Positions 435-23,453 of a stretch of DNA of 64,000 nt are shown here, piece by piece; within the stretch, counting starts at the first letter, position 1, and the number at the start of each line of letters is the position of its first letter. A program made the position numbers and the translations under genes. A model generated the notes under the pieces. The model was not told the DNA's origin. It did no database searches and worked only from the letters and a program-made list of their open reading frames with translations. Source of the stretch: Alphaproteobacteria bacterium (lineage in GTDB: Bacteria > Pseudomonadota > Alphaproteobacteria > Micavibrionales > Micavibrionaceae); the NCBI GenBank assembly GCA_009995595.1, contig JAACPE010000003.1:12871-76870 (forward strand). Direction: 5' to 3'.

Positions 435-2486
435 ATGACCACGCAAAACCCGCTTTTGACCCCTTCCCCTTTGCCGCATAAGGCGCCGCCTTTTAAGGCG
501 ATTAAAGAAGAGCATTTCTTGCCTGCGATTAAAATTGCAATTGAAGAAGCGCGGAAAAATGTTGAGGGGATTAAGGCTGTAAGCGCGCCAGCAGATTTTG
601 ACAATACAATTCTTGCGCTTGAGATGTCATCAGAGACGCTGGGTACGATTACCTCTATTTTTTATAATCAATTATCGGCCTGTGGGACAGATGGGCTGGA
701 AAAATTAGCCGAGGAAATTGGGCCTTTGCAGGCAAATTTTTCTACCGATGTGGCGCTTGATGAGAATTTATTTGCGCGCGTCAAAGCCGTTTATGAGGCG
801 CGCGATAGCCTTGACCTGACTGTGGAGCAGATGACGTTGCTCGATGATACCTATAAAGGGTTTGTGCGCGGCGGGGCGTTATTGGTTGGTGATAAAAAAG
901 CACGCCTGCGTGAGATTAACGAAGAAATGAGCACTATCGGCCCTGCCTTTATGAACAATGCAAAAAAATCTGCCGAGGGATTTGCGCTTATTATCGATAA
1001 TGAAAAGGATTTATCTGGCATCCCTGAAAACGCGGTTAAGGCCGCCGCCCTTGAAGCCGAAGAGCGTGACATGGCGGGCAAGTGGGTCTTTACCCTTGAT
1101 TATCCAAGCTATGGGCCGTTTGCGACCTATGCTGATAACCGTGACTTGCGCGAAAAAATGTGGCGGGCGTTTTCAAACAAAGCCTATAAAGATGAATTTG
1201 ATAACAGTGATAATGTTTTAAAAATTGTGCGTCTTCGTGATGAGCGCGCGAAATTATTAGGCTATGACAGTCACGCTGATTTCGTGCTGGAGCGGCGCAT
1301 GGCAAGATCGCCGCAAAATGTCCTAAGTTTTTTAGAAAAACTATTAGTGGCATATAAGCCCGCGGCAGAAAAAGATTTATCTGATTTGCAAGAATTTGCC
1401 AAAATGCAAAATGGGCCAGAAAAATTAATGCCATGGGACGTTGCGTATTATGCCGAAAAAATGAAAGAAAGTTTGTTTAATTTTTCGAGCGAGGAACTAC
1501 GTCCCTATTTCCAGTTGGACAAGGTCTTAAACGGCGTGTTTGACCATTTCAGCAAGCTCTTTGGGTTAGAGTTTAAAGCCAATGCGGCCTATGACACATG
1601 GCATAAAGATGTGACGGCCTATGATGTCACCGAAAAAGAAAGCGGGAATTTTATTGGCGTGCTTTATGCCGATTTTTATCCGCGCACGGGGAAAAAATCG
1701 GGCGCATGGAAAACAAGTTATCGTAACCAAGGGCTTTATGAGAACAAGATGGAGCGCCCGATTGTGGCGATTGTCTGTAATTTTACCAAACCCAATAAAG
1801 ACACGCCAAGCTTGATAAGCTTTGATGAGGTGACAACCTTATTCCACGAGATGGGGCATGCTATTCATGCGTTGCTTTCTGATGTGACATATTCATCTCA
1901 TGCAGGCACGTCTGTGCTCTGGGATTTTGTGGAGTTGCCATCACAGGTGCAGGAAAATTGGGCGTATGAAAAAGAAACACTTGATCTGTTTGCCGCACAT
2001 TATAAAACAGGCGAGAAAATCCCTGCTGCGCTCATTGAAAAAGTCAATAATGCCAAAAACTTCATGGTGGCTATGGGCGGACTGCGCCAAGTGAGCTTAG
2101 GTCTGATGGATATGCGCTGGCATACGGCAAACCCCGCGGATATTAAAGACGTTGCGGCGTTTGAAGATGAGGCGACAAAAGATACGCGCCTATTCCCGCG
2201 CCTTGCTGGACCGATATCAACATCGTTTTCGCATATTTTTGCGGGCGGATATGCCGCCGGATATTATAGTTATAAATGGGCGGAAGTATTAGACGCCGAT
2301 ACGTTTGAGCTGTTTCAAGAAAAGGGTTTATACGACCAAGACACGGCAAATAAATATAAAGGCGAGATTTTATCGCGCGGGGGGAGTGAGCCGCCAGAGG
2401 TTTTATATAAGCGTTTTCGTGGCCGTGATGCCGACCCTGATGCGCTCTTACGCCGTGAGGGATTGTTAAAGGATAAGGCGGCTTAA
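435..2486 (+). CDS. dcp: M3-family peptidyl-dipeptidase (Dcp / oligopeptidase A-like)
   Basis: 683-aa ORF with the zinc HExxH motif in LFHEMGHAIHALL. Length and overall layout are typical of M3 Dcp. Confidence 0.85.
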   Translation: MTTQNPLLTPSPLPHKAPPFKAIKEEHFLPAIKIAIEEARKNVEGIKAVSAPADFDNTILALEMSSETLGTITSIFYNQLSACGTDGLEKLAEEIGPLQANFSTDVALDENLFARVKAVYEARDSLDLTVEQMTLLDDTYKGFVRGGALLVGDKKARLREINEEMSTIGPAFMNNAKKSAEGFALIIDNEKDLSGIPENAVKAAALEAEERDMAGKWVFTLDYPSYGPFATYADNRDLREKMWRAFSNKAYKDEFDNSDNVLKIVRLRDERAKLLGYDSHADFVLERRMARSPQNVLSFLEKLLVAYKPAAEKDLSDLQEFAKMQNGPEKLMPWDVAYYAEKMKESLFNFSSEELRPYFQLDKVLNGVFDHFSKLFGLEFKANAAYDTWHKDVTAYDVTEKESGNFIGVLYADFYPRTGKKSGAWKTSYRNQGLYENKMERPIVAIVCNFTKPNKDTPSLISFDEVTTLFHEMGHAIHALLSDVTYSSHAGTSVLWDFVELPSQVQENWAYEKETLDLFAAHYKTGEKIPAALIEKVNNAKNFMVAMGGLRQVSLGLMDMRWHTANPADIKDVAAFEDEATKDTRLFPRLAGPISTSFSHIFAGGYAAGYYSYKWAEVLDADTFELFQEKGLYDQDTANKYKGEILSRGGSEPPEVLYKRFRGRDADPDALLRREGLLKDKAA

Positions 2487-7247: not shown

Positions 7248-8519
7248 ATGATTAATATCCTAAACAAATCGTGGCCACTCTTTTTTGGCCTTGCGCTTAT
7301 CATGATTGGCAATGGTTTGCAGGGCACATTGTTGGGTGTGCGGGCGTCGATAGAAGATTTCAACACGGCGGCGACCGGTTTTATGATGTCGCTTTATTAT
7401 GTGGGGTTTGTCGGTGGCTCTTACCTTGTGCCCAAAATGGTCAGCCGCGTCGGACATATTCGTGTGTTTACGGCGCTGGCTTCGCTGGCTTCGACCATGG
7501 TTTTGCTCCACGGGCTTTTTGTTGATGTGAATCTATGGATTATTATTCGTATGCTCACAGGGTTTAGTTATGCGGGTTTGTTTATTGTTGTTGAAAGCTG
7601 GCTGAATGATACATCGACCAATAAAACACGCGGCAAGATTTTATCTATCTATCAAGTGATTACCTATGGCGGTCTTGTTGCGGGACAGTTTTTGCTCACC
7701 GTTGCTGATCCGTCTGGTATTACTCTTTTTGTGCTGACGTCTATTTTGGTGTCAGTGGCGTTATTGCCAATATCATTAAGCTCACGCCCTGCGCCAGCCT
7801 TTGCCGAACCTGAAACCATATCGCTCAAAACATTGCTTGATCGCTCCCCCCTTGGAATTGTGGGCGCGTTTGGAAGCGGGCTTGGTGCGAGTATTTTATT
7901 CAGTCTGGGCGCGGTCTATGCCGCCGAGATTGGATTGTCTTTGGCGCAAATCTCAACATTCATGGCGGCCTATATGATTGGCGGGGTTGCCTTCCAAATC
8001 CCGATTGGCTGGTTGTCGGATAAATATGACCGTCGCAAGATTATTATTGGCATTTGCTTTTTGGCCTTTTTATCAGCGATTAGCTGTTATTTCGCGGCGG
8101 GATCTTCGGCGATATTTTATATCTCCTTTTTCTGCCTTGGTGGTATGAGCCTTTCAATTTATGGGCAATGTTTGGCGCATATGAACGATCATATTTCTGA
8201 AAAACAATATGTTGCGGCGGGATCAACGCTTATTTTTGTTAACGGTGTCGGCTCGGCGATTGGCCCGTTTGCGATTTCGCTGTTTATGAGCAAAATAGGC
8301 ATTAATGTTTTCTTCCCCATTATTGCGCTTATTTTTGGTGGTTTATTTGCCTATGGGGTTTATCGCACAAGCCGCCGCCCCCCTGTGCCGCTGGATCAGC
8401 AAACAGATTCTATTACGATGCCGGCCCGATCAACGCCGTTTGTCATGAATATCATGGAAGAAAGCGCGCCGACCATGAAAGACATGAACTCAAAGGACTC
8501 GCCTGAAAAAAATCGTTAG
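7248..8519 (+). CDS. MFS transporter
   Basis: 423 aa with about 12 hydrophobic helices and an MFS loop motif (LSDKYDRRK). Confidence 0.85.
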
Positions 8520-8671
8520 TTTTTTGCGCGGCGGCATTTTTCAGAGCAATAAAGCACACTATCCCAATTCTTTTCCCATTTTTTTCGCCATGTGAAGGGC
8601 AGACTACAAACGGGGCAAGTTTTTGAGGGCAAGGCGCCTTTTTGAATAATTTTTCCTTTAGACGATTTCAT
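8516..8671 (-). CDS. DUF2256-type small zinc-ribbon protein (51 aa, below the ORF-track cutoff)
   Basis: Hand translation gives [51 protein letters not shown]. The pattern CxxC...FxWRKKW...W..V.YCSxxCR is the DUF2256 signature as I recall it. The ATG overlaps the photolyase stop (aATGAAATCGTCTAA). Confidence 0.7.
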
Positions 8672-10196
8672 TGTTTTCTATCGCCTTAAAAAAGCGTTGT
8701 GCGTCACTTTTTATGGCGGTGATTTTATCATCATCCATTTTGGCCAAAGTGCGATAACCCATACCGATACGCGGATTATTGGATAGTTGATCTTCGTTAC
8801 GCAAAAAGAAGTCCCAATACAGATAATTAAACGGGCAGGCTTGAGGGCCATTTTTCTTGGTCACAGAATATTTACACCCCTTGCAGTAATCAGACATTTT
8901 GTTGATGTAAGCGCCGCTTGCGGCGTAAGGCTTACTGGCAAGATAGCCGCCATCCGCATACAGAATCATGCCGCTCACATTGGGAAGCTCTACCCATTCA
9001 TAGGCATCAGCATAGACAATCAAATACCATTCATTCACATATTTGGGATCAATCCCAGCGATGAGGGCAAAATTACCGAGCACCATGAGGCGCTGTATAT
9101 GATGGGCATAGGCATTTTCTTTTGTCTCTTTAATGCATTGTTTAAGGCAGTTCATATGCGTTGGCGCGCCCCAGAAAAAGTTAGGGAGTTTGCGCTTTGC
9201 CTCAAGAAAATTTTCCTGCGCATAGTCAGGCATTTTCATCCAATAAATACCGCGGATATATTCGCGCCAGCCCATAATTTGGCGGATAAACCCTTCGGTA
9301 GCGTTCAATGGCGCTTTGCCCTTTTTATAAGCATCTTGCGCTTTTTGAATACATTCTAAGGGTTTAAGCAGGCCACAATTCAGATAAAAACTGATATGGG
9401 CATGGAACATCCATGGCTCGCCCTCGACCATCGCATCTTGGTAATCGCCAAATTTTTGCAAGCGCTCGGTGATAAATTTATCAAGAGCATGGAGCGCCTG
9501 ATCGCGAGTGACGGCAAAATAAAAAGGCTCAAGATCGCCAAAGTGATTACCAAATCGCGTGGCGACTAAATCTATGACCTCGCGCGTGATGTCATCAATT
9601 TGGGCGGTATAGGTGGGAGGCACAAGCAACCCCTCTTTAGGGGGTTTGCGATTTTCGCTATCATAATTCCACTCCCCGCCTTCAGGTTTGTCGCCGTCCA
9701 TCAGGATGTTGTAATCGCGGCGCATGTCACGATAGAAAAACTCCATCCGAAGGCTTTTGCGCCCCTGCGCCCATTGTTCAAATTTTTCTGGAGTGCAAAG
9801 AAAGCGGTTATCTTCGCGGATATCAACGGGGATTTCAAACGCAGATTCCCATTTAATCATATCTTGTAAAACGCGATATTCGCCAGGGAAAGTAACAATA
9901 ATCTCATCGGGTTTATATGCCTTTATCGCGCGCTCTATTTCACCCCTAAAAGACCCAGTGTTTTTTTCATCATCAAGTTTCGTGTAATGAACGCTGTAGC
10001 CTTTATCTTGTAACTCCGCCGCAAAATGGCGCATGGCGGAAAAGAGGAAAGCGATTTTTTTTTTGTGGTGATGGACATAGGTGGCCTCATCCCAAACCTC
10101 TACCATCAGAATAATATCATTGTCTTTATCGCACCCTTTAAGCGCCGCGATATCGTGGCTGAGTTGATCGCCAAGGATAAGTCGCAAAGTGGTCAT
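8658..10196 (-). CDS. FeS-BCP class cryptochrome / (6-4) photolyase family protein (CryB/PhrB-like)
   Basis: 512 aa. The C-terminal segment [28 protein letters not shown] (C-x2-C-x12-C) plus an upstream Cys is typical of the 4Fe-4S photolyase-related family. Confidence 0.88.
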
Positions 10197-11188: not shown

Positions 11189-12766
11189 ATGATTAAAGAC
11201 GTCAATTTAGGCGGTTCCCTCGGCGGAACATTAAACAGCATCAAGCGAGCGAGCGCGCAAGTTGAGCAGACTTCCTTGCGCCTGAATACTGGCAAGCGTG
11301 TTAATTCCGTTTTAGATCAGCCCCAAAATTTCTTTAACGCCTTTTCCCTTAATAACGATGCCAGTGATTATTCAAGATTGATTGATGGCCTAAGCATGGG
11401 CACGCGCACTGTCCAAGCATCATTATCGGGTTTAGAGGCGATTGAAAAAGTATTGCGCCTTGCTGAAAATAGAGCGCTTGAGGCGGCAACAACTTTAGAA
11501 AATACTAAATCGGCTCTACCCAATGCGATTTTGGCCGACAACCCGGTTGGATATTATCAGCTTTATGATGCAGATCGCATCGAGGCGGTGAATATTGGAT
11601 CACTCGCAGGGGATCCCAATGGCAATGGAACGTATATTAACGGTGTTTCCCAAGGCAAAGAGATTTTATTTTATGGCGCAGGCGGTCTCGCCGCAAAATT
11701 TGACGGTAACCAACAATATATTGGAATCTTGCCTAACGACTCCATCAATACCGCTGGGCCTTATGATGAAAAGACAATTGAGCTGACGTTTAATGCCGAC
11801 ACAGTTGCAGGGCGGCAAGTCTTGTTTGAAGAAGGGGGGCCCGTTAATAACCTTAATATTTATATTGATAATGGGCAGGTCTATGTGAATGGTCGTTCAA
11901 CTTTCGGCGGCGGATGGGGACCATTTAATATTAGCGCGCCAATCGAAGCGGGTGTGACCTATCAGGTTGCACTTGTGCTTGATGCCAATAACAACCGATT
12001 TTCCGGCGTGTTGAACGGCGAAGAATTTGGGTCAGCCTTCCTACCCGCCCCCATCGGAAGCCACCCCAATAGAAACGCAATTGGCGCGATTAATCAGGAT
12101 ATTTATTTCCATGATGACGGGCCAGGCAATGCACCAACGAACCGCCCCGATGGATCGTTCGCGTTTCGCGGCGAGATATCCGATGTCGCTTTTTATAACG
12201 ATGTGATTTCATTAGAAGGCTTACGCGCACGCTATGAGGCAACGTCCCTGCCCCTTGCTGAGCGTTTTCGGACCGAGATCATCGAGTTTATGAACCAGAT
12301 TAGCGGCATTGTCGAAGATAGCGCGTTTCGGGGTGTGAACTTACTTCAAGAAGATGAGTTACGTGTTGACTTAAACCAAGACCGATCGAATAAATTAGAA
12401 ATTAAAGGCGGTAATTTTTCATTAGAGTCGTTGGGTCTTGATGAAATTTCATTCCAAAAGCCATCACAAACCGAAGCGTCCATCCGAAAAATTCGTGAGG
12501 CGATTGAAACAATCCGTGAGTACACGTCAAAACTGACGAGCGATATTAATATCATTAATATGCGTGAAACATTCACGCGTGAGAAAATAAATACCCTTAA
12601 AGCGGGCGCTGATGATTTAACGCTCGCGGATATTAATGAAGAGGCGGCCAATCAACTCTCAGCGCAAACACGCTTGGAGCTTAGTGTGACGGCACTCTCA
12701 CTCGCTACTGCCTCGCAACAGAGCATTCTCACCCTTTTTAGCAATGGAACAGGGCAGGTTATCTAA
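11189..12766 (+). CDS. Flagellin-family protein with an inserted LamG/concanavalin-like central domain
   Basis: The N-terminus (LNTGKRVNSVLDQPQNFFNA...) and C-terminus (DDLTLADINEEAANQLSAQTRLELSVTALSLATASQQSIL) match the Bradyrhizobium-type flagellin D0/D1 helices. The centre (PVGYYQLYDAD...DPNGNGTYINGV...AAKFDGNQQYIGI...TIELTFNAD...FRGEISDVAFYN) reads like a Laminin_G_3 jelly-roll. Confidence 0.8.
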   Translation: MIKDVNLGGSLGGTLNSIKRASAQVEQTSLRLNTGKRVNSVLDQPQNFFNAFSLNNDASDYSRLIDGLSMGTRTVQASLSGLEAIEKVLRLAENRALEAATTLENTKSALPNAILADNPVGYYQLYDADRIEAVNIGSLAGDPNGNGTYINGVSQGKEILFYGAGGLAAKFDGNQQYIGILPNDSINTAGPYDEKTIELTFNADTVAGRQVLFEEGGPVNNLNIYIDNGQVYVNGRSTFGGGWGPFNISAPIEAGVTYQVALVLDANNNRFSGVLNGEEFGSAFLPAPIGSHPNRNAIGAINQDIYFHDDGPGNAPTNRPDGSFAFRGEISDVAFYNDVISLEGLRARYEATSLPLAERFRTEIIEFMNQISGIVEDSAFRGVNLLQEDELRVDLNQDRSNKLEIKGGNFSLESLGLDEISFQKPSQTEASIRKIREAIETIREYTSKLTSDINIINMRETFTREKINTLKAGADDLTLADINEEAANQLSAQTRLELSVTALSLATASQQSILTLFSNGTGQVI

Positions 12767-14189: not shown

Positions 14190-17100
14190 TTAACCGTTTT
14201 GCGCGACTTGTAGCGCCTGTGTGCGCGGTGGCACCCAAACCTCCATGGCGCAAAATACACCCTGATCGAGGAACATTTCGCAGCGCCGATGAAGCGCGGC
14301 AAAGCTGTTATCATGGCCTGTGAAATAGGTTTCGGCGTCTTGCTCCAGCGAGGCAAGTTTTTGCAAGCCCTGATAGGTTTCAGGCGATAGTCTGGATTTT
14401 GCCAGTTTGGAGAGAAGCCCTTGAATTTTTGATTGCCCTTTTTGACCCACTTTAATTGTATAAAATGGTTGATCCATAAAAGGGGCATCAAACAAAGTTG
14501 GTTTTTTATAGCTCACATGAATTGCCACATTTTTACGGTCTTCGAGTAGCTCGATATTTTGGGCGTAAAGCGTATCTCCTTCGTATCCTACGTTGATAAC
14601 GCGCGGACTGGGGGCTGCCGCGCCGAAACGTTTGGCTGTTTTATGACTGACTTGCATTAAATATTGGCCCGGCGGGATTTTTGGTACAACGAAGAAACCA
14701 TCAATCGCAATGGGCGCTTTCACAATATTGTTTTTTCCATCCTTGAGCGAGAGCAATTCAATCTCCCCGCCTTTCATTGTTTTGACAGTGCCATTTTTAC
14801 CACGGATCATCACTGTTCCATCAATCTCACCTGACATGTGGACAGGAAATTCAATTTCGACAATTTCTCCTGCGCTCGGGAAGATTGACGCGCCTTCAAA
14901 ACCTGAAATCATATAAGGGTCAGGCAAGGTTTGATCATCTACAACGATATCTGTTGCCCGTACGCTCGGCAGGTTACGAATGAGGGAATAGCCTTTGTCG
15001 TTAGTCTCAGCGCGGCGGCGCACGTTAACACTTTCAACGATAACTTCTGGCAAAGGCTCATCATTTTCATCAAAAATTTTATTGCCGTTTTTATCATGAT
15101 AAACAAAGGCAGAGACAAGGCCGCGCCCAACGGTTTGTTCACTGGTGATAAGAGGCATAGAAGAGTCAGGTTGGTCGATGATATTAAAGTTAAGATTCAC
15201 CCCTGCGAAAATTTCATCATCTGAATCAATTTCAATAAAGGGCGAAGTTCTAAAGTTTTTGTGTGTGTAGTTTAAGTTTAAACGCGCCTCGGAAAAATCA
15301 CGATCTGGCTCATGATCAAGGAAAAGGTCGCTTGAAAATTTTTGGCTGGGGCGGTAGCTGAATTGTGAAAAATAACGATCAACGCCCTGCTCTGGTTTGA
15401 TTTCATAAGTAACACCGCCCCGCGCAAAAACACGTCCCATATTTGCCCGCAAGGATAATGTATTATCAAGACGATCTTCAGTGGCAAGCACATCATCAGA
15501 ATCAAATTTTTCATGCACTGTCGTGTTGCTGATATTATATTGCTTAAATTGATGAGAGAGGCCAAGGCGGTTTTCTATTAATTTTTGCCCCCCTGCATTT
15601 TCGGAATACCCCGATTGAACAGATATGTTTGATCTTGTTTGCGGTGAAATTTCGAAATTCTTTTGGGCGTTTAAGGACACATCAAGCACGCGTGGATTTG
15701 TGCTTTCATCGGCTTGATAATTTTCATCTTGCACAAGGCCGCGCAAGGCCAAGTTCCAGTCATTGATATTCTTACGGGCAACGAGCTGAGCGGCGGTATT
15801 GGCTTCATTATCGATCCCTGTATTCAAATCGAAAATGGTGTTGTTCCAGATTTTAGTACCACCGGCGGCGATAAAAGTTCTATTATCCCCTTCAATATCA
15901 CGGTTACGCACACCAACATAAGCGAGCGTATCGCCAATCACTTTATTAAAACGTCCCACAAAGTGGGGACTATCTTCATCAACATCGCCGTTGCTTATTT
16001 TTTGATAGGTTTGAGAGTCAGACAAAGACGCAGACACATCATAAGTATTGTTCTGACTGGCGAGTAATGCTTCGGTTACTGGGATATTAATTTTACGGTT
16101 TCTAATTTCCCCTTGCGGGCCATAGAAGAAGATCTCAAATAAGTTATCGCCAGCAAAAAGCTGTACATCAGAAAATTCATAACGGCCATCATTATCGACC
16201 AAAATTGAATCAACCAAAACGCCGTTACGATACAACTCAATATCCCATCCCGGTATGGCATCACCGTTAATATCAGTGGTTTCAAATTGTGTGTTGACCA
16301 GTTCACTGTTGCTGACGCGAAAGCCCAGCTCTTGGCGGGCATCGCCCGTCAGGGGAAGATCGGTTAAATCTGTATCCCCGATAGAATAGGATCGCGCCTG
16401 AAGCGGACCAAGCAACACAGGGTTTTCATTGCGTTTAGAAAGGCGCGTTCTAATCGCGCTGATTTGATCGCGGTCATTATAACTGGCGAGCGCGTAGGCT
16501 TCGTGTTTTAACGCCTGCCCTTCTATGGTAACGTTTGCATCATAGCGCGTATTGGCCTGTGCATTTTTTTGGCGGCGATACCGTGAGCCAAGACGCACAT
16601 CAGCCGTGTTAATATCAAACCAGTCATATTTGATTTCTTGGCGGGGCAAAATTGCCTCATTGTTATTGCCGCTTCCACTTGCATTTTTTTGAAGGCGGTA
16701 ATTACGCGCAACGCCCGGTAAAGGATACGGGCTTTCTATTTCTAAATATTGCTGTGAAACGTCTGCAATAAAAGACATATAAAGCCATTTGGATAAAGCC
16801 TCTTGGGAGACAAATATCTCTGACCCGTCTTTGAAATAATCTGCACCGGCAATTGCAAATTTTTGTTCCCGCGATTGAACGTCGCCTGATTGAAAATCAA
16901 GGTTAATTTCCCAATCTTCGCGCAAGAACCAGCCTTTGCCTTGCTCAGTATCTTCATCCCAATCAATAGCAAGTTCGAGAATGTCGATCATATCAAGGAA
17001 AGAGAAATATAAAGTATTATTTTTCTTAATTGCATAAATATCAAATTCATAGACCAAATTGCCAATTCGGGGGCGCAATAAAAGGGATTGCCCATCTGGT

Positions 17101-17348
17101 ATTTGGCTTAAAGCGCGGCGATTTTTATCAGCATTATTATCGCTATTATTTAGCGCGTTATTATAGACATAATTACTTTTTGTTTTTTGAACAAATTGCT
17201 TGGCAAGGTTCAATAATTTTGTCTGCTCTGGCGTATTTTGAGTCAAATTTTGGGCAAATGAAGTCGAAACACGAAGCACGATCGTGTTCATTGCCAACAA
17301 TATTAAAAAAAGCATGGCCGCTTTTTTGAGGGGCAGACGGTAAATCAT
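14190..17348 (-). CDS. Large secreted outer-membrane protein, candidate atypical usher / platform of the DUF4402 fibre locus
   Basis: The likely start is ATG 17348, giving the signal peptide MIYRLPLKKAAMLFLILLAMNTIVLRVSTSFA|QN; the ORF-track start 17510 adds an unlikely 54 aa. The centre is rich in alternating beta-strand sequence, consistent with a barrel. It also carries SdrD-B / CarboxypepD_reg-like modules (VYHDKNGNKIFDENDEPLPEV..., GEIDGTVMIRGKNG...) and a SPOR-like C-terminus. It is divergent from the subunit/chaperone genes. Confidence 0.55.
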   Translation of the reverse strand: MIYRLPLKKAAMLFLILLAMNTIVLRVSTSFAQNLTQNTPEQTKLLNLAKQFVQKTKSNYVYNNALNNSDNNADKNRRALSQIPDGQSLLLRPRIGNLVYEFDIYAIKKNNTLYFSFLDMIDILELAIDWDEDTEQGKGWFLREDWEINLDFQSGDVQSREQKFAIAGADYFKDGSEIFVSQEALSKWLYMSFIADVSQQYLEIESPYPLPGVARNYRLQKNASGSGNNNEAILPRQEIKYDWFDINTADVRLGSRYRRQKNAQANTRYDANVTIEGQALKHEAYALASYNDRDQISAIRTRLSKRNENPVLLGPLQARSYSIGDTDLTDLPLTGDARQELGFRVSNSELVNTQFETTDINGDAIPGWDIELYRNGVLVDSILVDNDGRYEFSDVQLFAGDNLFEIFFYGPQGEIRNRKINIPVTEALLASQNNTYDVSASLSDSQTYQKISNGDVDEDSPHFVGRFNKVIGDTLAYVGVRNRDIEGDNRTFIAAGGTKIWNNTIFDLNTGIDNEANTAAQLVARKNINDWNLALRGLVQDENYQADESTNPRVLDVSLNAQKNFEISPQTRSNISVQSGYSENAGGQKLIENRLGLSHQFKQYNISNTTVHEKFDSDDVLATEDRLDNTLSLRANMGRVFARGGVTYEIKPEQGVDRYFSQFSYRPSQKFSSDLFLDHEPDRDFSEARLNLNYTHKNFRTSPFIEIDSDDEIFAGVNLNFNIIDQPDSSMPLITSEQTVGRGLVSAFVYHDKNGNKIFDENDEPLPEVIVESVNVRRRAETNDKGYSLIRNLPSVRATDIVVDDQTLPDPYMISGFEGASIFPSAGEIVEIEFPVHMSGEIDGTVMIRGKNGTVKTMKGGEIELLSLKDGKNNIVKAPIAIDGFFVVPKIPPGQYLMQVSHKTAKRFGAAAPSPRVINVGYEGDTLYAQNIELLEDRKNVAIHVSYKKPTLFDAPFMDQPFYTIKVGQKGQSKIQGLLSKLAKSRLSPETYQGLQKLASLEQDAETYFTGHDNSFAALHRRCEMFLDQGVFCAMEVWVPPRTQALQVAQNG

Positions 17349-17635
17349 AAATGGGGCAAACGTTTGAGAGAAGAAAAGTGCAAACCGAAGAAAACTCTTA
17401 TATATCAAGGGTATGTTACCTGACATTTCTGTCAATAACAAATGTTTCGTTGATAACTGGCAAATCATCTTCATAGAACTTACATAAAATTTTTTATTAA
17501 TTTTAGGCAAGTTAATAATGTCTTAAATATTTTAGTATGATATTAATAGAGGAGTTATTAGTCGTCAGTGCGACAAATCGCAAAGTATTGCTATCGTTTA
17601 TTCATTAAGTATCATTTAGGAAGGAACCCTACACA

Positions 17636-18220
17636 ATGAAAAATACATCAAGATTTCTATTACTATCAGCGTGCGCGCTTGGTTTTGTCGCTTTTGGCAA
17701 TGATGCCAAGGCACAAACAGCAAACATGACTGCTACGGCAACTGTTCAAAACACTTTGACACTTGCAACACCTTTACAACTTAACTTTGGGTCATTTGCC
17801 GCCGTCCGTGACGCCGCGCAAACAGCCAGTATCACAGTAAGTGCGGCAGGCGTTGAATCTGTTGCGACAACTGGGGGTACTGCTGTGACAGCGGTTGTTG
17901 ATAACACGGCTGTTTCACAAGGTCAGATTACGGTTGCTGATGGTGCTGATGGCGCGGCCATAAATATCGTTATCAATAACGTGGTTGATCCGATTAACGG
18001 CGCTGAAAGCTTTGTCCTTGCTGGTTTTAGCACACGTTGGAATGGTGGCGCCCCTGTCGCAAGAACAGCAGCAACGCCATTTTCACAAACTTTTGATGCC
18101 GCTATTGGCCCAAACTTAAACGTGCTTGATATCGGTGCAACATTGACAACAACATTAGGCGCAGTGCCTTATACAGATGGTGTCTATAACGGTACATATG
18201 ACGTGGTGTTTAGCTACTAA
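17636..18220 (+). CDS. Secreted DUF4402-type fibre subunit (probable major subunit)
   Basis: Signal peptide ...AFGNDAKA|QT, an N-terminal LNFGSF motif, Thr/Ala/Val/Gly-rich composition without Cys, and the C-terminus GVYNGTYDVVFSY. This pattern is characteristic of DUF4402 and reminiscent of SCPU/Csu pilins. A strong terminator follows. Confidence 0.65.
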   Translation: MKNTSRFLLLSACALGFVAFGNDAKAQTANMTATATVQNTLTLATPLQLNFGSFAAVRDAAQTASITVSAAGVESVATTGGTAVTAVVDNTAVSQGQITVADGADGAAINIVINNVVDPINGAESFVLAGFSTRWNGGAPVARTAATPFSQTFDAAIGPNLNVLDIGATLTTTLGAVPYTDGVYNGTYDVVFSY

Positions 18221-18255
18221 TTACCTACCATAATATTTAAAATCGTAATAATAGA

Positions 18256-18282
18256 CCCCGCGCGTATGCAGCGGGGTTTTTT
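18256..18282 (+). terminator. Rho-independent terminator / attenuator after the first fibre subunit gene
   Basis: CCCCGCGC-GTAT-GCaGCGGGG stem followed by TTTTTT. Confidence 0.7.
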
Positions 18283-18339
18283 ATTTATTGCGCCCGTCAA
18301 ATTGTGATAAGAATAAAACATATCAGCGAGGGAAAAAAT

Positions 18340-19140
18340 ATGAAAACACTTAAGCTTCTTTTTGTCTTTATGGCAATCACCATCGGTTTACCACAAGCCG
18401 CGCAAGCCCGTATCGATATTTTGCCGCGCATTGTCATTATCGACAGTCGCGATCGCTCTGGTGAACTCACGATTTTGAACCTGTTTAATGAAACATCGAC
18501 TTTTCGTATGGATTTATTGAATTACCGTCAAAATGAAGACGGGGTCTATGCAGAGTTAGAAACACCGCTTAATCCCGCCTTTGATCCGGCGGAAGTGGTC
18601 CGTTTTTCACCACGCCAGTTTGAACTGACACGTGGCGGGCGGCAAAAAATTCGTTTGTCCATTCGTAAACCAGCCGATTTACCAGAAGGCGAATATCGTT
18701 TTCATATTAAGGCACTCCGCCTTGCCAATATTGATACGAGCCAAAGTGATAACAGTGTTGTTCAAATGTTTGCCAATGTGGGCGTTGCCATCCCCGTGAT
18801 TGTTCGCCATGGTAATGTGCAAGCCAGAGCCGCCCTTAAAAACCCGCGCATCATTGACCATACACGCACAGACAATGGCCGCCCTGCCTTACAGATAGAG
18901 ATAGAGCGCACGGGTAATGCGAGCGCTATTGGGGCTTTAGAAGTGTTATGGGAGCAGCCAGGAGAAAAACCGAAAAAAATTGGCGGTATTGCCAACATGA
19001 ATGTATTTACGGAAATTTCAAAAAGAATAGTCACTGTTCCCCTCTCTGAGTTACCATACGGGCAAGGCGCTTTGAAAGTACGCTACAGCAAGGGTGAAAA
19101 CAAAGGGGACGTTTACGATGAAATCATTGTTCAGCGGTAA
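18340..19140 (+). CDS. PapD-like periplasmic pilus chaperone
   Basis: I place the start at ATG 18340 after a GAGGGA Shine-Dalgarno, giving signal peptide MKTLKLLFVFMAITIGLPQAAQA. RIVIIDSRDRSGELTILN and FSPRQFELTRGGRQKIRLSIRKPADLPEGEYRFHIKA resemble the two conserved PapD N-domain segments. Confidence 0.7.
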   Translation: MKTLKLLFVFMAITIGLPQAAQARIDILPRIVIIDSRDRSGELTILNLFNETSTFRMDLLNYRQNEDGVYAELETPLNPAFDPAEVVRFSPRQFELTRGGRQKIRLSIRKPADLPEGEYRFHIKALRLANIDTSQSDNSVVQMFANVGVAIPVIVRHGNVQARAALKNPRIIDHTRTDNGRPALQIEIERTGNASAIGALEVLWEQPGEKPKKIGGIANMNVFTEISKRIVTVPLSELPYGQGALKVRYSKGENKGDVYDEIIVQR

Positions 19141-19606
19141 AAAATACATCGGCGCAGCCTTTATCCTGTTTTTAGGATTAGGGTCGCTTAGTGTGACAAA
19201 GCACAGCCACGCACAAACAATTACTGAAAATATCCCCCTTAGCTTTGGGAGATTTGTTTTGGTTGATAATAATGCCGTGCGGCGCTTACGTATTCGGACG
19301 AATTGTACAGAAAATGCCGATCCTGAATATATGTTCATCATTGATCCGCAATGTGGCAATTATACAGTAACAGGATACCCGCCGTTCACGCCGCTGACTG
19401 TGACGCTTGCGAACGGTGCGCTCAATGGCCCGGGTGCTAATATTTTTCGATTACGCGCTTTAGCAACCGTCCCCACAACCATTACAACCGATGCCACGGG
19501 TGAAGCCACATTTGAAGTGCGTGGGCGTCTCGATAGCTCGGGTAATGGCGGTGGTTATATTGATGGCGGTTACACTGGCAGTTTTACGATGACTGTGACA
19601 GATTAA
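19118..19606 (+). CDS. Secreted DUF4402-type fibre subunit 2 (minor or tip subunit candidate)
   Basis: Start at ATG 19118 (MKSLFSGKKYIGAAFILFLGLGSLSVTKHSHA|QT), overlapping the chaperone gene by 23 nt. It has the LSFGRF motif, one Cys pair and the C-terminus GGYTGSFTMTVTD. Confidence 0.6.
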   Translation: MKSLFSGKKYIGAAFILFLGLGSLSVTKHSHAQTITENIPLSFGRFVLVDNNAVRRLRIRTNCTENADPEYMFIIDPQCGNYTVTGYPPFTPLTVTLANGALNGPGANIFRLRALATVPTTITTDATGEATFEVRGRLDSSGNGGGYIDGGYTGSFTMTVTD

Positions 19607-19739
19607 TATCTTCTAATTCCCTGATATTATTTAATATTTTTTAAAATAATACACGCATAATTTGACTTAAACCCCAAATCAGCTTTATTTTTAACGTGGA
19701 GCGGTGTTTCTCATCGCACTTTCTAAAAGGGTACAGCGT

Positions 19740-20687
19740 ATGTCTATATGCCCCCCTTCGCGTTTCTTTGGTCTAAAGAGAATAAGAAGGTTAACATTAT
19801 TAAACATAACAATGTGTTTGCTCGCGCTCAACACAACAGCGTGTCATTTTGACTTTTTCTCCTCGAATGATCGCGCCCCAAAAGCAATGCCCCCTAAACC
19901 GATACAAACGGCAGTGTCTTATGACGAAGCCAGCGATCTCGCCCTGCCCGCGACAAGCGCCGACGGGTTTGGTGATGCGCCTCAAATTAATATTGAACGT
20001 GGTAATTTAAAGGGTGCTCTCACAGTAAATGACACACTTTTATTCGAAGAAAATATTTCCAATGAAGGCAAACGCTTTGACCGCGTCGAAGACATCGTCC
20101 AGCGTATTTCCGATAAGATGAACAAGATGGAACCAACCGTTGATCGTCTTGCCAAGGTAGAGCAGGATTTAGAAGGTCTTACAGAACAGCTGGAAGTTTT
20201 AGTCAACCAAGAAACAATGACAATGCGCCAACACGGATCATACGATAGCAGTGCCAAGGTAGAGGGAGTGGTTCCGATTGCAGATGCGGCGCAACAACAA
20301 AATATTGGCAATGTTCCATTTGCGGGAAATATGACCTTTGCGACCGATGCAAGTTTACGCAATATTGTTCAAGGCATTCGCACCGCCGACCATAAGACCA
20401 AAACGCGTATTGTTTTGGAAACCAGTGAGCTGATGCATTACATCACGGCGATCAATAATAATAAATTTACTTTCACTGTGGCCTATTACGGCAATGTGCC
20501 GCAGATGGATTTAAACAGCCTGACGAATTCTTCCAAAGAGATTGTTTCTGTTATGGCGCAGCAAAATGGGCCAGAGGCGACAATTACGTTTCAATTGAGC
20601 GATCCAACAGTGCTGATGAAAGAAGGGCGCATTCATCCAAATAAAGATAACGCGCAACACCGCATTTATTTGGACATCAAACGCTAG
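19740..20687 (+). CDS. Hypothetical envelope protein: hydrophobic, lipoprotein-like N-terminus, coiled coil and AMIN-like C-terminal domain
   Basis: The N-terminus is ...MCLLALNTTAC, the centre is a heptad-rich segment (EPTVDRLAKVEQDLEGLTEQLEVL), and the C-terminus (IRTADHKTKTRIVLETSELMHY...RIYLDI) resembles AMIN. The start is uncertain (GTG 19704 or ATG 19740). Confidence 0.45.
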   Translation: MSICPPSRFFGLKRIRRLTLLNITMCLLALNTTACHFDFFSSNDRAPKAMPPKPIQTAVSYDEASDLALPATSADGFGDAPQINIERGNLKGALTVNDTLLFEENISNEGKRFDRVEDIVQRISDKMNKMEPTVDRLAKVEQDLEGLTEQLEVLVNQETMTMRQHGSYDSSAKVEGVVPIADAAQQQNIGNVPFAGNMTFATDASLRNIVQGIRTADHKTKTRIVLETSELMHYITAINNNKFTFTVAYYGNVPQMDLNSLTNSSKEIVSVMAQQNGPEATITFQLSDPTVLMKEGRIHPNKDNAQHRIYLDIKR

Positions 20688-21589
20688 GCGCTCTCGCCAT
20701 CTTCAAGCATTTCATGAGGGAGTAAAACATCGGCGCTACGGGCTACGAATTCGGGGTTGAGAAATTTAGGATCTGCACCGCCATAGGTCAGATCATTACC
20801 GTTCATATCCGTGAGTTTCCCGCCCGCACCCAGCAAAACGGCGTGCCCTGCCGCCGTGTCCCATTCACATGTCGGGCCAAAGCGCGGATACATATCCGCT
20901 TTACCCGCCGCAATTGAGCATATTTTGAGAGAGCTGCCCCGTTTGATTTGTTTTTTGACCATATAGTGTGCCAAAAAATTATCCAATTCTTGGCCACTGC
21001 CATGGGATTTACTCGACACAATTGTTAGCCCCTCAAGCGGCATAGGGCGCACATGAATCGGTTTTTCTTTTTCGGTATCATCCATATATTTAAGGGCTGT
21101 TCCTTCACCGTGAGCAGCATAAAGCTCGCCAGGGACTGGCGCATAAACAACACCTAAAATAGGCATTCCGTTTTTAATAAGAGCAATATTAACGGTATAA
21201 TCACCGCTTCCTGAAATAAATTCTTTTGTCCCATCCAATGGATCAACAAGCCAGAAGTACTCTTCGGCGCTCAGATCAGGGCGGTATCCATCAGAAGCCG
21301 CCTCTTCACCCACGACCATCACATCGGGGGTAATATCTTTGAACGCTTTTTCGATGAGCTCTTCTGCCTTTTGATCGGCGAGCGTCACGGGCGAGCCATC
21401 CCCCTTAAAATCCGCACCATCATAGCCCGCATCATCAAAGTAATTGAGAGTGAGCTCCCCCGCTTCTAGTGCAAGACGGCGAATCTGGTTGCAAAGCGCT
21501 TGAGGGTAATTCAAGATTTTGCTCGTATATGTCTTTTGGGCAATATTATTTGAGGACACGTAAGTTTCCTTTGGTTTGTTTTTGAGCAT
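20684..21589 (-). CDS. cysQ: 3'(2'),5'-bisphosphate nucleotidase
   Basis: Inositol-monophosphatase family motif [12 protein letters not shown]. It sits last in the cysD-cysNC operon. The start is ATG 21589 or TTG 21592, overlapping the end of cysNC. Confidence 0.85.
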
Positions 21590-23453
21590 CAATCAAGACA
21601 TTCATCTCAATATAATCCACAATTTGCGTGACGCAGGTTTGGACATCATTTTTTGCCGTATCCACAACTAGATCTGGGTTATGTGGTGGCTCATAAGGAG
21701 AGTCAATCCCTGTAAATTCTTTAATCTCACCGCTTCGTGCTTTTTTATAAAGCCCCTTTGGGTCACGTGCTTCGCAGGTTTTTAAATCTGCTTTAACGTA
21801 TATTTCATGAAAATGCTGCGGCGCGGCGCGGCGCGCGCGGTCACGGTCTGCCTGATAGGGAGAGATAAACGCAGACAAAACAATAATGCCCGCATTGGCC
21901 TGCAACGCGGCGACCTCACCGACACGGCGGATATTCTCTGTGCGGTCTTCGGGGGAAAAACCCAAATCAGAATTAAGGCCGTGGCGCACATTATCCCCAT
22001 CAAGCACGTAAATGTTTTTGCCGCGTTCAAAGATAGTCCTTTCAACTTCGATCGCAAGCGTCGATTTACCAGAGCCTGACAACCCCGTCAGCCAGAAAAT
22101 GCCGCCATAATGCCCAAACATTGCCGCGCGCATATCGGGCGTGACGGAGTGACTTACTTTATAAATATTTTTTGATTTAGGATTATTGGATTTTCGTTGA
22201 TCAGGATAAGCGCTCATATCAATCAAGCCGCCGCCCACAACATCATAATCTTCGTAAATTACAAGACGCCCCAACTTAGTATTTTCAACGTAGCCATCAA
22301 TAGGCATAATGGCGCGTGATCGTAGTGTAATTTGTGCAACAGCATTTTTCACAACTTGCGCGGCGTTTTCTTCTTTGCCAAGGTCCTGCGTATCGACCAG
22401 CGTATCAATGGATTGCACACTTACCCGAACCTCATTTGTACCAAAGCGGGCGCGGTAAGTATTACCCACCTTCATCGGTTTTTCAGACAGCCAAAAAATA
22501 TTGGCTTGAAAGACATTGGATAAAACAGGAAGTGTATCTTCGTGACTTGCGACATGGCCGCGCTCAACAAATATAGGCTCAGATAAAGTAATACCAATAG
22601 ATTGCCCAGCGCTTGCGGTCACACGATCACTTTTTTGAGGCCAGCTTTCAATACTTGTCACAACCGCTTTTTCATTGGTGGGAGAAAAAAACAGTGTGTC
22701 ACCAACGTGTAAAACCCCTGTTTCCACGCGCCCAACCAAAATACGTTTTTCTTCAAAACGATAGACATCTTGAATCGGAAAGCGTAAGGGCTTTGATACC
22801 AGCGGGCTTGAGATATCAAAACTATCCAGCGCCTCGATCAATGTCTTTCCTTTATACCATTGCATTTTATCGCTACGAGCGGCAAGCATATCACCATCAC
22901 GCGCGGCCATCGGAATTATAAAATGTGCCTGAAGGCCAATTGATTGCAGATAGGCGGCGCATTCTTTTGATACCGCATCAAAGCGTTTAGGGTCATAGCC
23001 AACCTTATCCATTTTATTAACGGCAACGGCAATTTGTTTCATGCCAAGTAAATGAAGCATATAGGCGTGACGGCGTGTTTGCTCTTTAACGCCTTCATCG
23101 GCATCCACAACCAAAACGGCGGCGTCAGCCTGCGCCGCGCCGGAGATCATGTTTTTTAAAAATTCACGATGACCGGGCGCATCAATAATGACGTAATCAC
23201 GATTGTCCGTGGAGAAGAAAATCTGGGTTGTATCAATGGTCACTGCTTGGTCACGCTCTGCCTGAAACGCATCAAGGACGAATGAGTATTCAAACGGCAC
23301 ACCCCGACGCGCGCATACGGATTTTATATCTTCCAGCTTGCCATCTTCCAAGCTATTCGTGTCATGTAACAAGCGCCCAATAAGCGTTGATTTACCATGG
23401 TCAACATGCCCCACAATAACAACATTCAATTTTTGTGCGTTTTTGTTACTCAT
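21546..23453 (-). CDS. cysNC: Bifunctional sulfate adenylyltransferase subunit 1 / adenylylsulfate kinase
   Basis: N-terminal translational-GTPase P-loop (GHVDHGKST) and a C-terminal APS-kinase P-loop (GLSGSGKST). 635 aa. Confidence 0.95.

Follow-up and report, generated by a model that had tools for sequence, protein, structure and literature searches.

Gene content of the locus

The locus described here lies in a stretch of 64,000 nucleotides (nt) of contig JAACPE010000003.1 (positions 12,871 to 76,870; assembly GCA_009995595.1), hereafter called the window, from a member of the alphaproteobacterial family Micavibrionaceae. Its five genes very probably form a complete, highly divergent, non-classical chaperone–usher system, most likely one that builds a thin surface fibre from DUF4402 subunits. 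The initial annotation, made from the sequence alone, had read the region as an uncharacterised chaperone–usher-like fibre locus, and structure models, Foldseek searches, profile comparisons and synteny support that reading; none of the outcomes that it had named as speaking against it (small proteins lacking a DUF4402-like fold, a chaperone lacking a PapD fold, a large protein lacking a barrel, genes not found together elsewhere) was encountered. All five open reading frames (ORFs) were verified at the positions first assigned to them in the 64-kb window, and are arranged as follows:

14190..17348, minus strand: usher gene, 1052 amino acids (aa) from ATG 17348
17349..17635, no strand: AT-rich spacer separating subA from the divergent usher gene, presumed promoter region for both transcription units
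17636..18220, plus strand: subA, 194 aa, divergent DUF4402 subunit, presumed major polymerising pilin
18340..19140, plus strand: chaperone gene, 266 aa, two Ig-like domains, periplasmic, non-classical type
19118..19606, plus strand: subB, 162 aa, DUF4402 subunit, presumed tip (first-incorporated) subunit
19704..20687, plus strand: gene 5, 327-aa ORF with likely start at ATG 19740, lipoprotein

The usher gene is transcribed divergently from the other four genes. In the intergenic region 17349..17635, promoter-like matches were no commoner than expected by chance, and the promoter role given to it follows from the gene arrangement. Signal peptides were found at the N-terminus of all five products, with signal peptidase I sites in four of them and a lipobox in the product of gene 5. 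The start of the usher is ambiguous, as its ORF reaches back to TTG 17510 (1106 aa) and its database entry (P0121) has 1094 aa; a normal signal peptide is obtained only from ATG 17348. When the window proteins of the locus were compared with Pfam, subB alone scored above threshold, with no PapD match for the 266-aa protein and no Usher match for the 1052-aa protein. Sequence searches of NCBIfam and the PDB, performed with the five proteins and, for the PDB, also with four family profiles, gave nothing useful.

Predicted fold of the usher

An AlphaFold model of the 1052-aa protein (pLDDT 86.1), built from an alignment of 44 homologues, contains 24 long strands (6 + 18), with one sandwich inserted between the two sets and two sandwiches after them, which agrees with the membrane barrel expected from the sequence. 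The following segments were delimited:

Residues 42-81: helical region, after the Sec signal peptide
16734..17087, minus strand: N-terminal periplasmic domain (NTD), residues 88-205, from the secondary structure of the model
16311..16619, minus strand: barrel strands 1-6, residues 244-346, from the model
16086..16280, minus strand: plug-like beta-sandwich, residues 357-421, between barrel strands 6 and 7, from the model
15177..16046, minus strand: barrel strands 7-24, residues 435-724, from the model
14511..15125, minus strand: equivalents of the C-terminal domains CTD1 and CTD2, periplasmic beta-sandwiches of residues 742-850 and 855-946, from the model
14235..14465, minus strand: C-terminal tail, residues 962-1038, beta-alpha-beta-beta-alpha-beta, degenerate SPOR-like

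Ushers consist of an NTD, a barrel of 24 strands whose beta6-beta7 loop holds an Ig-like plug, CTD1 and CTD2 (PMC4356140), and the topology of the window protein, including the position of the plug, equals this canonical layout. When the model was compared with the PDB by Foldseek, the top 18 matches were all FimD or PapC, with E values from 5.3e-29 (921 columns) to 1e-13, and the translocation pores of PapC and FimD matched the barrel at about E 1e-15. The best non-usher match had an E value of 1.9e-8, and porins lay near 1e-6. By its predicted fold, then, the 1052-aa protein is an usher. The three Ig-like modules recognised earlier are indeed present as three sandwiches, but their identity is that of the plug, CTD1 and CTD2 of an usher; the Pfam matches in these places, to CarboxypepD_reg at the plug and to SdrD_B and an EMC7-like domain in the CTD1/CTD2 region, are all below threshold. 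LptD, porin and TonB-receptor identities were also considered for the barrel and ruled out, as the gap of about 20 orders of magnitude in Foldseek E value favours an usher.

The sequence places the protein much farther from known ushers. Pfam Usher (PF00577) does not match it at E <= 1; only one of the 44 family members is matched (E 0.0078), and P0384 reaches 22.2 bits, below the cut-off of 27.1. The first description of the protein as something other than a canonical FimD/PapC usher is thus correct for its sequence but not for its fold. In profile comparisons with hhalign, the family aligned with five E. coli ushers at a probability of 80% (E 1.4e-5), collinearly over 534 columns, whereas classical and alternative E. 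coli ushers reached 2% against each other in the same small test. The distance between this family and the classical ushers is thus similar to that between the known pathways, and little sequence homology exists between chaperone–usher pathways (PMC4654587). The signal was obtained only with small multi-sequence E. coli profiles, since the comparison with FimD alone was not significant (2.8%, pairing usher residues 778-838 with FimD 735-794).

The NTD differs from that of the known ushers. PapC_N has no match in it, and the hhalign alignments to the E. coli ushers begin after it. Eight of the 44 family members match PF07833 (Cu_amine_oxidN1, 'stalk'; best E 1.3e-7) in this region, P0430 reaches 25.2 bits against the cut-off of 24.2 for this family, and one usher relative bears the name 'stalk domain-containing protein'. 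Judging from these matches, the NTD appears to be of the stalk/Cu_amine_oxidN1 type and not of the PapC_N type.

A non-classical PapD-like chaperone

The product of the 266-aa gene, which had been said to read like a PapD-fold chaperone, gave an AlphaFold model (pLDDT 88.1) made of two beta-sandwich domains. Its best full-length Foldseek matches were CfaA (7.8e-9), Caf1M (2.2e-8) and CsuC (4.2e-8), followed by others down to 1e-6; CupB2, DraB, FimC, EcpB and PapD were also matched, so that all three known pathways are represented. A WxLIP two-Ig-domain protein was likewise among the matches. On this model, the protein is a two-domain PapD-like chaperone of the non-classical type.

Conservation among 43 homologues was mapped onto the predicted strands. 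Pro91, invariant in all 43, lies between the half-strands 87-90 and 93-96 of the model, at the D1 kink, and a D1-kinking proline is the sole residue that is invariant across the superfamily (PMC4654587). Arg120, also invariant in 43 of 43, falls in strand F1 (117-128) as assigned by predicted secondary structure, and its spacing from Pro91 is 29 residues, compared to 30 in CsuC (Pro59 to Arg89). A 'super-conserved' F1 Arg is the subunit-carboxylate anchor of the archaic and alternative chaperones (PMC4654587). The A1 Arg of classical chaperones is not conserved, position 30 being R in 25, Q in 13, H in 3 and K in 2 of the 43 sequences, and strand G1 (residues 148-157) is devoid of Lys, so that the classical A1 Arg/G1 Lys anchor is lacking. 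Strand G1 presents the alternating hydrophobic residues V149, I151, V153 and V155, and the F1-G1 loop preceding it (residues 129-147) is long and modelled with low confidence. In domain 2, R190 and R229 are invariant and Y249 is near-invariant; the carboxylate anchor of non-classical chaperones is completed by a Tyr and an Arg of domain 2 (Tyr196 and Arg174 in CsuC).

Pfam PapD_N (PF00345) does not match the window chaperone. A homologue on a Thermoanaerobaculia contig (L030) is found by the hidden Markov model (HMM) of the window family at E 5.5e-43 and is itself matched by PapD_N with 31.9 bits (cut-off 23), which provides a transitive sequence link between the chaperone and the PapD family; the homologue in L031 reaches 22 bits. 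By hhalign, the chaperone family aligned with six E. coli chaperones at a probability of 91% (E 9e-7), and the comparison with FimC alone was not significant (0.8%).

The DUF4402 subunits

The two small Sec-exported proteins had been recognised as DUF4402-type proteins with shared motifs, and both points hold. Members of both subunit families retain the L-x-F-G motif and end in the conserved pattern G-x-Y-x-G-x-[YF]-x-V-x-[FV]; in subA of the window, the signal peptide comprises residues 1-26 and the protein ends in ...GTYDVVFSY. SubB is matched by Pfam DUF4402 (PF14352) with 27.7 bits (gathering cut-off 25.2), as are 21 of the 22 members of its family (best 7e-29). SubA itself has no DUF4402 match, and 4 of the 33 members of its family do. 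The two families nevertheless aligned by hhalign at a probability of 99% (E 9e-18) over 129 columns and are, by this profile evidence, homologous DUF4402 relatives; a BLASTP comparison of subA with subB was not significant, the homology being visible at the profile level only. A literature search returned no paper naming DUF4402 or PF14352, in agreement with the earlier remark that no DUF4402 fibre has been characterised.

The main difference between the two subunits is found at the N-terminus, where one additional feature was delimited:

17714..17758, plus strand: N-terminal extension of subA, mature residues QTANMTATATVQNTL, candidate donor strand

The alignment of the two proteins opens at subA residue 42, leaving about 15 extra mature residues at the N-terminus of subA, in which small hydrophobic and polar residues alternate to give an amphipathic segment. 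The mature N-terminus of subB begins directly at the strand that matches subA residue 42. The extension is kept in every subA homologue and missing in every subB homologue, and the same split is found in distant loci. Pilins of chaperone–usher systems have an Ig fold that is incomplete until a donor strand is supplied; this strand is the N-terminal extension of a polymerising subunit, and the subunit at the distal tip has no such extension. By analogy, the subA extension is a candidate donor strand, and the lack of one suggests that subB is the tip subunit.

No resemblance to known pilins was detected. Pfam SCPU (PF05229) had no match at E <= 1 in the window subunits or in the 33 subA-family and 22 subB-family members, the subunit profiles gave no significant similarity (probabilities of 0.4-42%) to EcpA or to 11 classical pilins of E. 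coli, and PDB sequence and profile searches turned up no relative of solved structure. Three loci have two tandem subA-type genes, encoding proteins of about 195 and 215-219 aa (L020 5547..6888, L021 5589..6905 and L024 5591..6884), which suggests that the major subunit was duplicated and then diverged.

Transcription and translation signals

The strong terminator noted after the first subunit gene was examined by folding, and is described as follows:

18253..18289, plus strand: intrinsic terminator/attenuator after subA, GC-rich hairpin at about 18253-18279 followed by a T-run

The structure was missed by a consensus terminator scan, because its loop is above the limit of the scan, and was detected by direct folding, with a dG of -21.3 kcal/mol and a z of -3.1. 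Of 26 distinct loci, 24 have a comparable hairpin 5-30 nt beyond the stop codon of subA. The stem sequences differ between these loci, so that it is the structure of the terminator, and not its sequence, that is conserved. The overlap between the chaperone and subB genes is, as reported, exactly 23 nt in the window, and an in-frame ATG at -23 is found in 18 of 25 distinct loci. Along with the five-gene module, both signals are retained among 27 related loci, and they fit a surplus of the transcript of the major subunit and a translational coupling of subB to the chaperone.

These signals, together with the subunit N-termini, bear on a different function for the same genes, in which the usher-like barrel would be a secretion pore for monomeric DUF4402 proteins and the PapD-like protein a simple holdase, with neither donor-strand exchange nor polymerisation. 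Such a function would be in line with subunits that have no detectable likeness to known pilins and with an usher NTD from a different family. However, a split between an extended subA and an unextended subB, kept across phyla, is what would be expected of polymerising and tip subunits, and a terminator-based surplus of subA transcript fits a major structural subunit; we therefore regard simple secretion as very unlikely.

Distribution and synteny

More than 100 homologues each of the chaperone and the usher were found in uncultured Alphaproteobacteria, and the 23 loci with a GTDB assignment all belong to Micavibrio, Micavibrionaceae or alphaproteobacterial metagenome-assembled genomes (MAGs). 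In 24 of 28 sources, all five genes follow one another in an unchanged order; of the remaining four, three are truncated at contig ends and one is without subB. The flanking genes vary among the loci that keep the module. Conservation of the five genes is therefore far beyond chance, and the co-occurrence proposed in the initial annotation as a check turned out in its favour. Some variation was observed within the module: in L011 the interval between the chaperone gene and gene 5 is devoid of a subB ORF (7801..7821), in L014 about 1.4 kb of inserted sequence separates subA from the chaperone gene (689..2068), and in L021 gene 5 is inverted (8423..9346). A search of the literature gave nothing relevant on Micavibrio and chaperone–usher systems.

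The usher family is much larger than this group. An exhaustive HMMER search with the usher profile found 2,895 cluster representatives at E <= 1e-30, and the family ranges over Alphaproteobacteria, Gammaproteobacteria, Desulfobacterota and Acidobacteriota. Five distant members were examined (from Alteromonadaceae, Thermoanaerobaculia, Desulfobacter, a Pseudomonadota MAG and an unclassified contig), and all five adjoin a PapD_N-like gene and DUF4402 genes, which places the trio in four further lineages. No sampled relative is annotated as an usher. These findings point to a large usher family that has been overlooked as such by Pfam and NCBI, and whose members are consistently associated with DUF4402 and with modules that bind peptidoglycan. 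At two of the distant loci, those from Desulfobacter and the Pseudomonadota MAG (L036 2004..6812 and L037 1..6785), the usher gene also adjoins polysaccharide-related genes, namely a GNVR chain-length determinant, a CbiA/AAA_31 tyrosine-kinase-like gene and glycosyltransferases, a context that hints at a tie to exopolysaccharide loci.

Synteny also bears on whether the genes of the locus are functionally unrelated neighbours, the large protein being an ordinary outer-membrane porin, or an adhesin containing Ig domains, and the 266-aa protein an ordinary Ig-fold periplasmic protein. DUF4402 is the sole diagnostic Pfam match among the window proteins, and a WxLIP two-Ig-domain protein appears in the chaperone fold matches, both of which would suit such a chance assembly. 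On the other side are the usher fold match, about 20 orders of magnitude above any other barrel, the occurrence of the five genes together in 24 of 28 sources with differing flanks, the trio of usher, PapD_N-like and DUF4402 genes in all five distant loci, and the conserved overlap. The fold and synteny evidence effectively refutes the reading as functionally unrelated neighbours, the least probable of the explanations considered.

Putative peptidoglycan-binding modules

Two components of the locus carry domains that may contact peptidoglycan. The protein encoded by gene 5 has a lipobox Cys (residue 47 of the 327-aa ORF), followed by a coiled coil and a linker of variable sequence, and ends in a putative AMIN domain. 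The lipobox Cys is present in all homologues with a complete N-terminus and invariant in an alignment of 21 sequences, and [AGS] precedes it throughout the family. Pfam AMIN (PF11741) matches 12 of the 21 members of the gene 5 family (best E 2.5e-6), and the best PDB match of the region, a weak one, is the AMIN region of PilQ. The coiled-coil protein with an AMIN-like domain described earlier is therefore confirmed for the family, but the window protein itself, at 13.5-13.9 bits, is under the AMIN cut-off of 20.5.

In the usher, the C-terminal tail has the secondary-structure order of SPOR, and Cys1023 and Cys1033 (positions 79 and 89 of the tail alignment) are invariant. Pfam SPOR (PF05036) has no match in the window tail and gave none in 37 of 38 Micavibrio-clade tails, the remaining one matching at E 1e-4. 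True C-terminal SPOR domains are found in distant ushers (P0392, 6e-19; P0402, 5e-14; P0438, 2e-12; P0384, 4e-11), and a distant relative in Desulfobacter is named 'SPOR domain-containing protein'. Through these relatives, the tail may be identified as a degenerate SPOR domain; the SPOR-like tail of the initial annotation is in this way retained, without a Pfam match of its own. In L029 and L031, whose ushers (977 and 970 aa) have no C-terminal tail, a neighbouring accessory protein carries SPOR (L029 3375..4847, 20.3 bits; L031 9998..10996, 24.8 bits; cut-off 21). The peptidoglycan-binding module thus seems to move between the usher and the accessory protein.

AMIN and SPOR domains bind denuded septal or polar peptidoglycan, and the AMIN domains of PilQ place and anchor the type IV pilus secretin (PMC5285504). 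Our literature search found no paper on an usher carrying a SPOR-type domain. To our knowledge, peptidoglycan-binding modules have not been described for any usher. If our reading is correct, this would be the first cell-wall-anchored usher that we know of, and it would raise questions about how such a machine is positioned and how it bears load.

Proposed assembly pathway

From these elements a pathway can be proposed for the formation of the fibre. All five products would be exported by Sec. In the periplasm, the two-domain chaperone would cap the subunits, with G1 (V149-I151-V153-V155) filling the groove and R120 anchoring the C-terminal carboxylate, a step modelled on the F1 Arg anchor of the archaic and alternative systems. 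The chaperone–subunit complexes would then dock on the 24-stranded gated barrel of the usher. SubB would enter first and form the distal tip, because without an N-terminal extension it could not donate a strand, and subA would polymerise behind it by donor-strand exchange through its amphipathic extension. The terminator would provide surplus subA transcript, and the 23-nt overlap would couple translation of subB to that of the chaperone. Finally, the SPOR-derived tail of the usher and the AMIN lipoprotein probably tether the machine to the cell wall, position it there, or both, since domains of the SPOR and AMIN types bind denuded peptidoglycan.

Several points weigh against this interpretation. 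The sequence ties of the usher and the chaperone to known families are weak, with no Pfam match and hhalign probabilities of 80-91%, and the NTD, which recruits the complexes in known usher systems, appears to come from a different domain family. The subunits are not significantly similar to SCPU, to EcpA, to the classical pilins or to any protein of solved structure, and their donor-strand complementation is inferred from the conserved split between an extended subA and an unextended subB. The SPOR-like tail and the AMIN domain of the window proteins are themselves under the Pfam thresholds. In addition, all the organisms concerned are uncultured MAGs, and the system is known from its genes alone, from which the fibre is deduced.

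The shape of the product could also differ from a pilus. The same machinery might deposit a polymer layer that is amorphous or short, for instance a polyadhesin resembling a capsule, of the Caf1 kind, or a coat like the spore coat U of Myxococcus, which is exported by an archaic system. The locus has one polymerising subunit type and one cap, with no two-domain adhesin, and the long, low-confidence F1-G1 loop of the chaperone (residues 129-147) recalls the FGL chaperones, which build capsule-like fibres; moreover, the computed data do not separate a rod from a thin flexible polymer. Such a layer would differ from the proposed fibre in morphology only, the mechanistic evidence being common to both, but the peptidoglycan-tethering modules suggest a load-bearing, anchored structure, and we consider a non-pilus product unlikely.

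Comparison with known chaperone–usher systems

Few bacterial adhesins are understood as well as chaperone–usher pili, whose division into classical, alternative and archaic systems is treated as complete. The window locus falls outside the Pfam Usher, SCPU and classical-anchor definitions, but within the structural definition of the superfamily.

The archaic (sigma) pili, such as Csu of Acinetobacter and CupE of Pseudomonas, share with the window locus the invariant F1 Arg and D1 proline of the chaperone, an aromatic subunit C-terminus (...SY in subA, Phe in CsuA/B) and a wide spread outside enteric bacteria, and CsuC is among the best chaperone fold matches. They differ in that the window subunits are DUF4402 and not SCPU proteins, and in that the window usher is missed by Pfam Usher, has an NTD of another type and possesses a helical region near its N-terminus and a SPOR-type domain at its C-terminus. 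The window locus also includes an AMIN lipoprotein and is without a CsuE-like two-domain tip adhesin. This distinction is one of Pfam membership and of domain and gene content, rather than of direct profile comparison.

With the classical pili (type 1, FimD/FimC; P, PapC/PapD), the locus shares the usher topology, the two-domain fold of the chaperone and an operon logic in which a terminator follows the major subunit. In contrast to them, the window chaperone has no conserved A1 Arg/G1 Lys and sequence similarity shows up only in profile–profile comparison; the window usher is divergently transcribed, is about 200 aa longer and is equipped with peptidoglycan-binding modules. As for the alternative (alpha) pili (CFA/I, CfaA; E. 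coli ECP, EcpB/EcpC), CfaA is the best fold match of the chaperone (E 7.8e-9), and their chaperones share the F1 Arg anchor (PMC4654587). However, hhalign gave 0.2% with EcpC alone and 40% with EcpB/EcpE, and the loci also differ in the family of their subunits, in the order of the genes and in the accessory proteins. Type V (Bacteroidia) pili were ruled out, as the window subunits have signal peptidase I sites and not lipoboxes.

Outside the superfamily, the closest parallel is the type IVa secretin PilQ with its AMIN domains (and TsaP), which is likewise an outer-membrane pore for fibre export tied to denuded peptidoglycan (PMC5285504). PilQ is a secretin, not an usher, and the assembly mechanism is another, so that the likeness is one of functional analogy only.

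A bolder possibility, which we put forward tentatively and hold somewhat less probable than its opposite, is that these loci represent a fourth, phylogenetically broad pathway, separate from the three recognised ones (classical, alternative and archaic). Its defining features would be DUF4402 pilins, an usher with a stalk-type NTD, and tethering of the usher to denuded (septal or polar) peptidoglycan by SPOR domains and by accessory lipoproteins of the AMIN or SPOR type. Such tethering would imply that the fibres are installed at division sites or poles, and a polar fibre could then serve for prey attachment in Micavibrio-like epibiotic predators. The more limited reading, that of a divergent non-classical chaperone–usher system, would if true already assign a function to DUF4402, extend the superfamily and supply a candidate organelle of attachment for the Micavibrio-like lineage, which is largely uncultured.

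Genes flanking the module

Unrelated housekeeping genes flank the module in the window: argH and a gene for a flagellin-like protein lie upstream, and a cysQ-like gene and cysNC lie downstream. The latter pair lies directly 3' of gene 5 both in the window (20684..23453) and in L003 (10456..13205), and the end of the cysQ-like ORF overlaps the stop codon of gene 5 convergently by 4 nt. Because the flanks differ at other loci, we consider cysQ and cysNC a case of local synteny and not part of the module. The flagellin-like protein (11189..12766, plus strand, 525 aa) has the N- and C-terminal helical regions of flagellin around a concanavalin-A-like/Laminin_G_3 centre, which scores 26.9 bits in Pfam against a cut-off of 27.6 and is an unusual insert for a flagellin.

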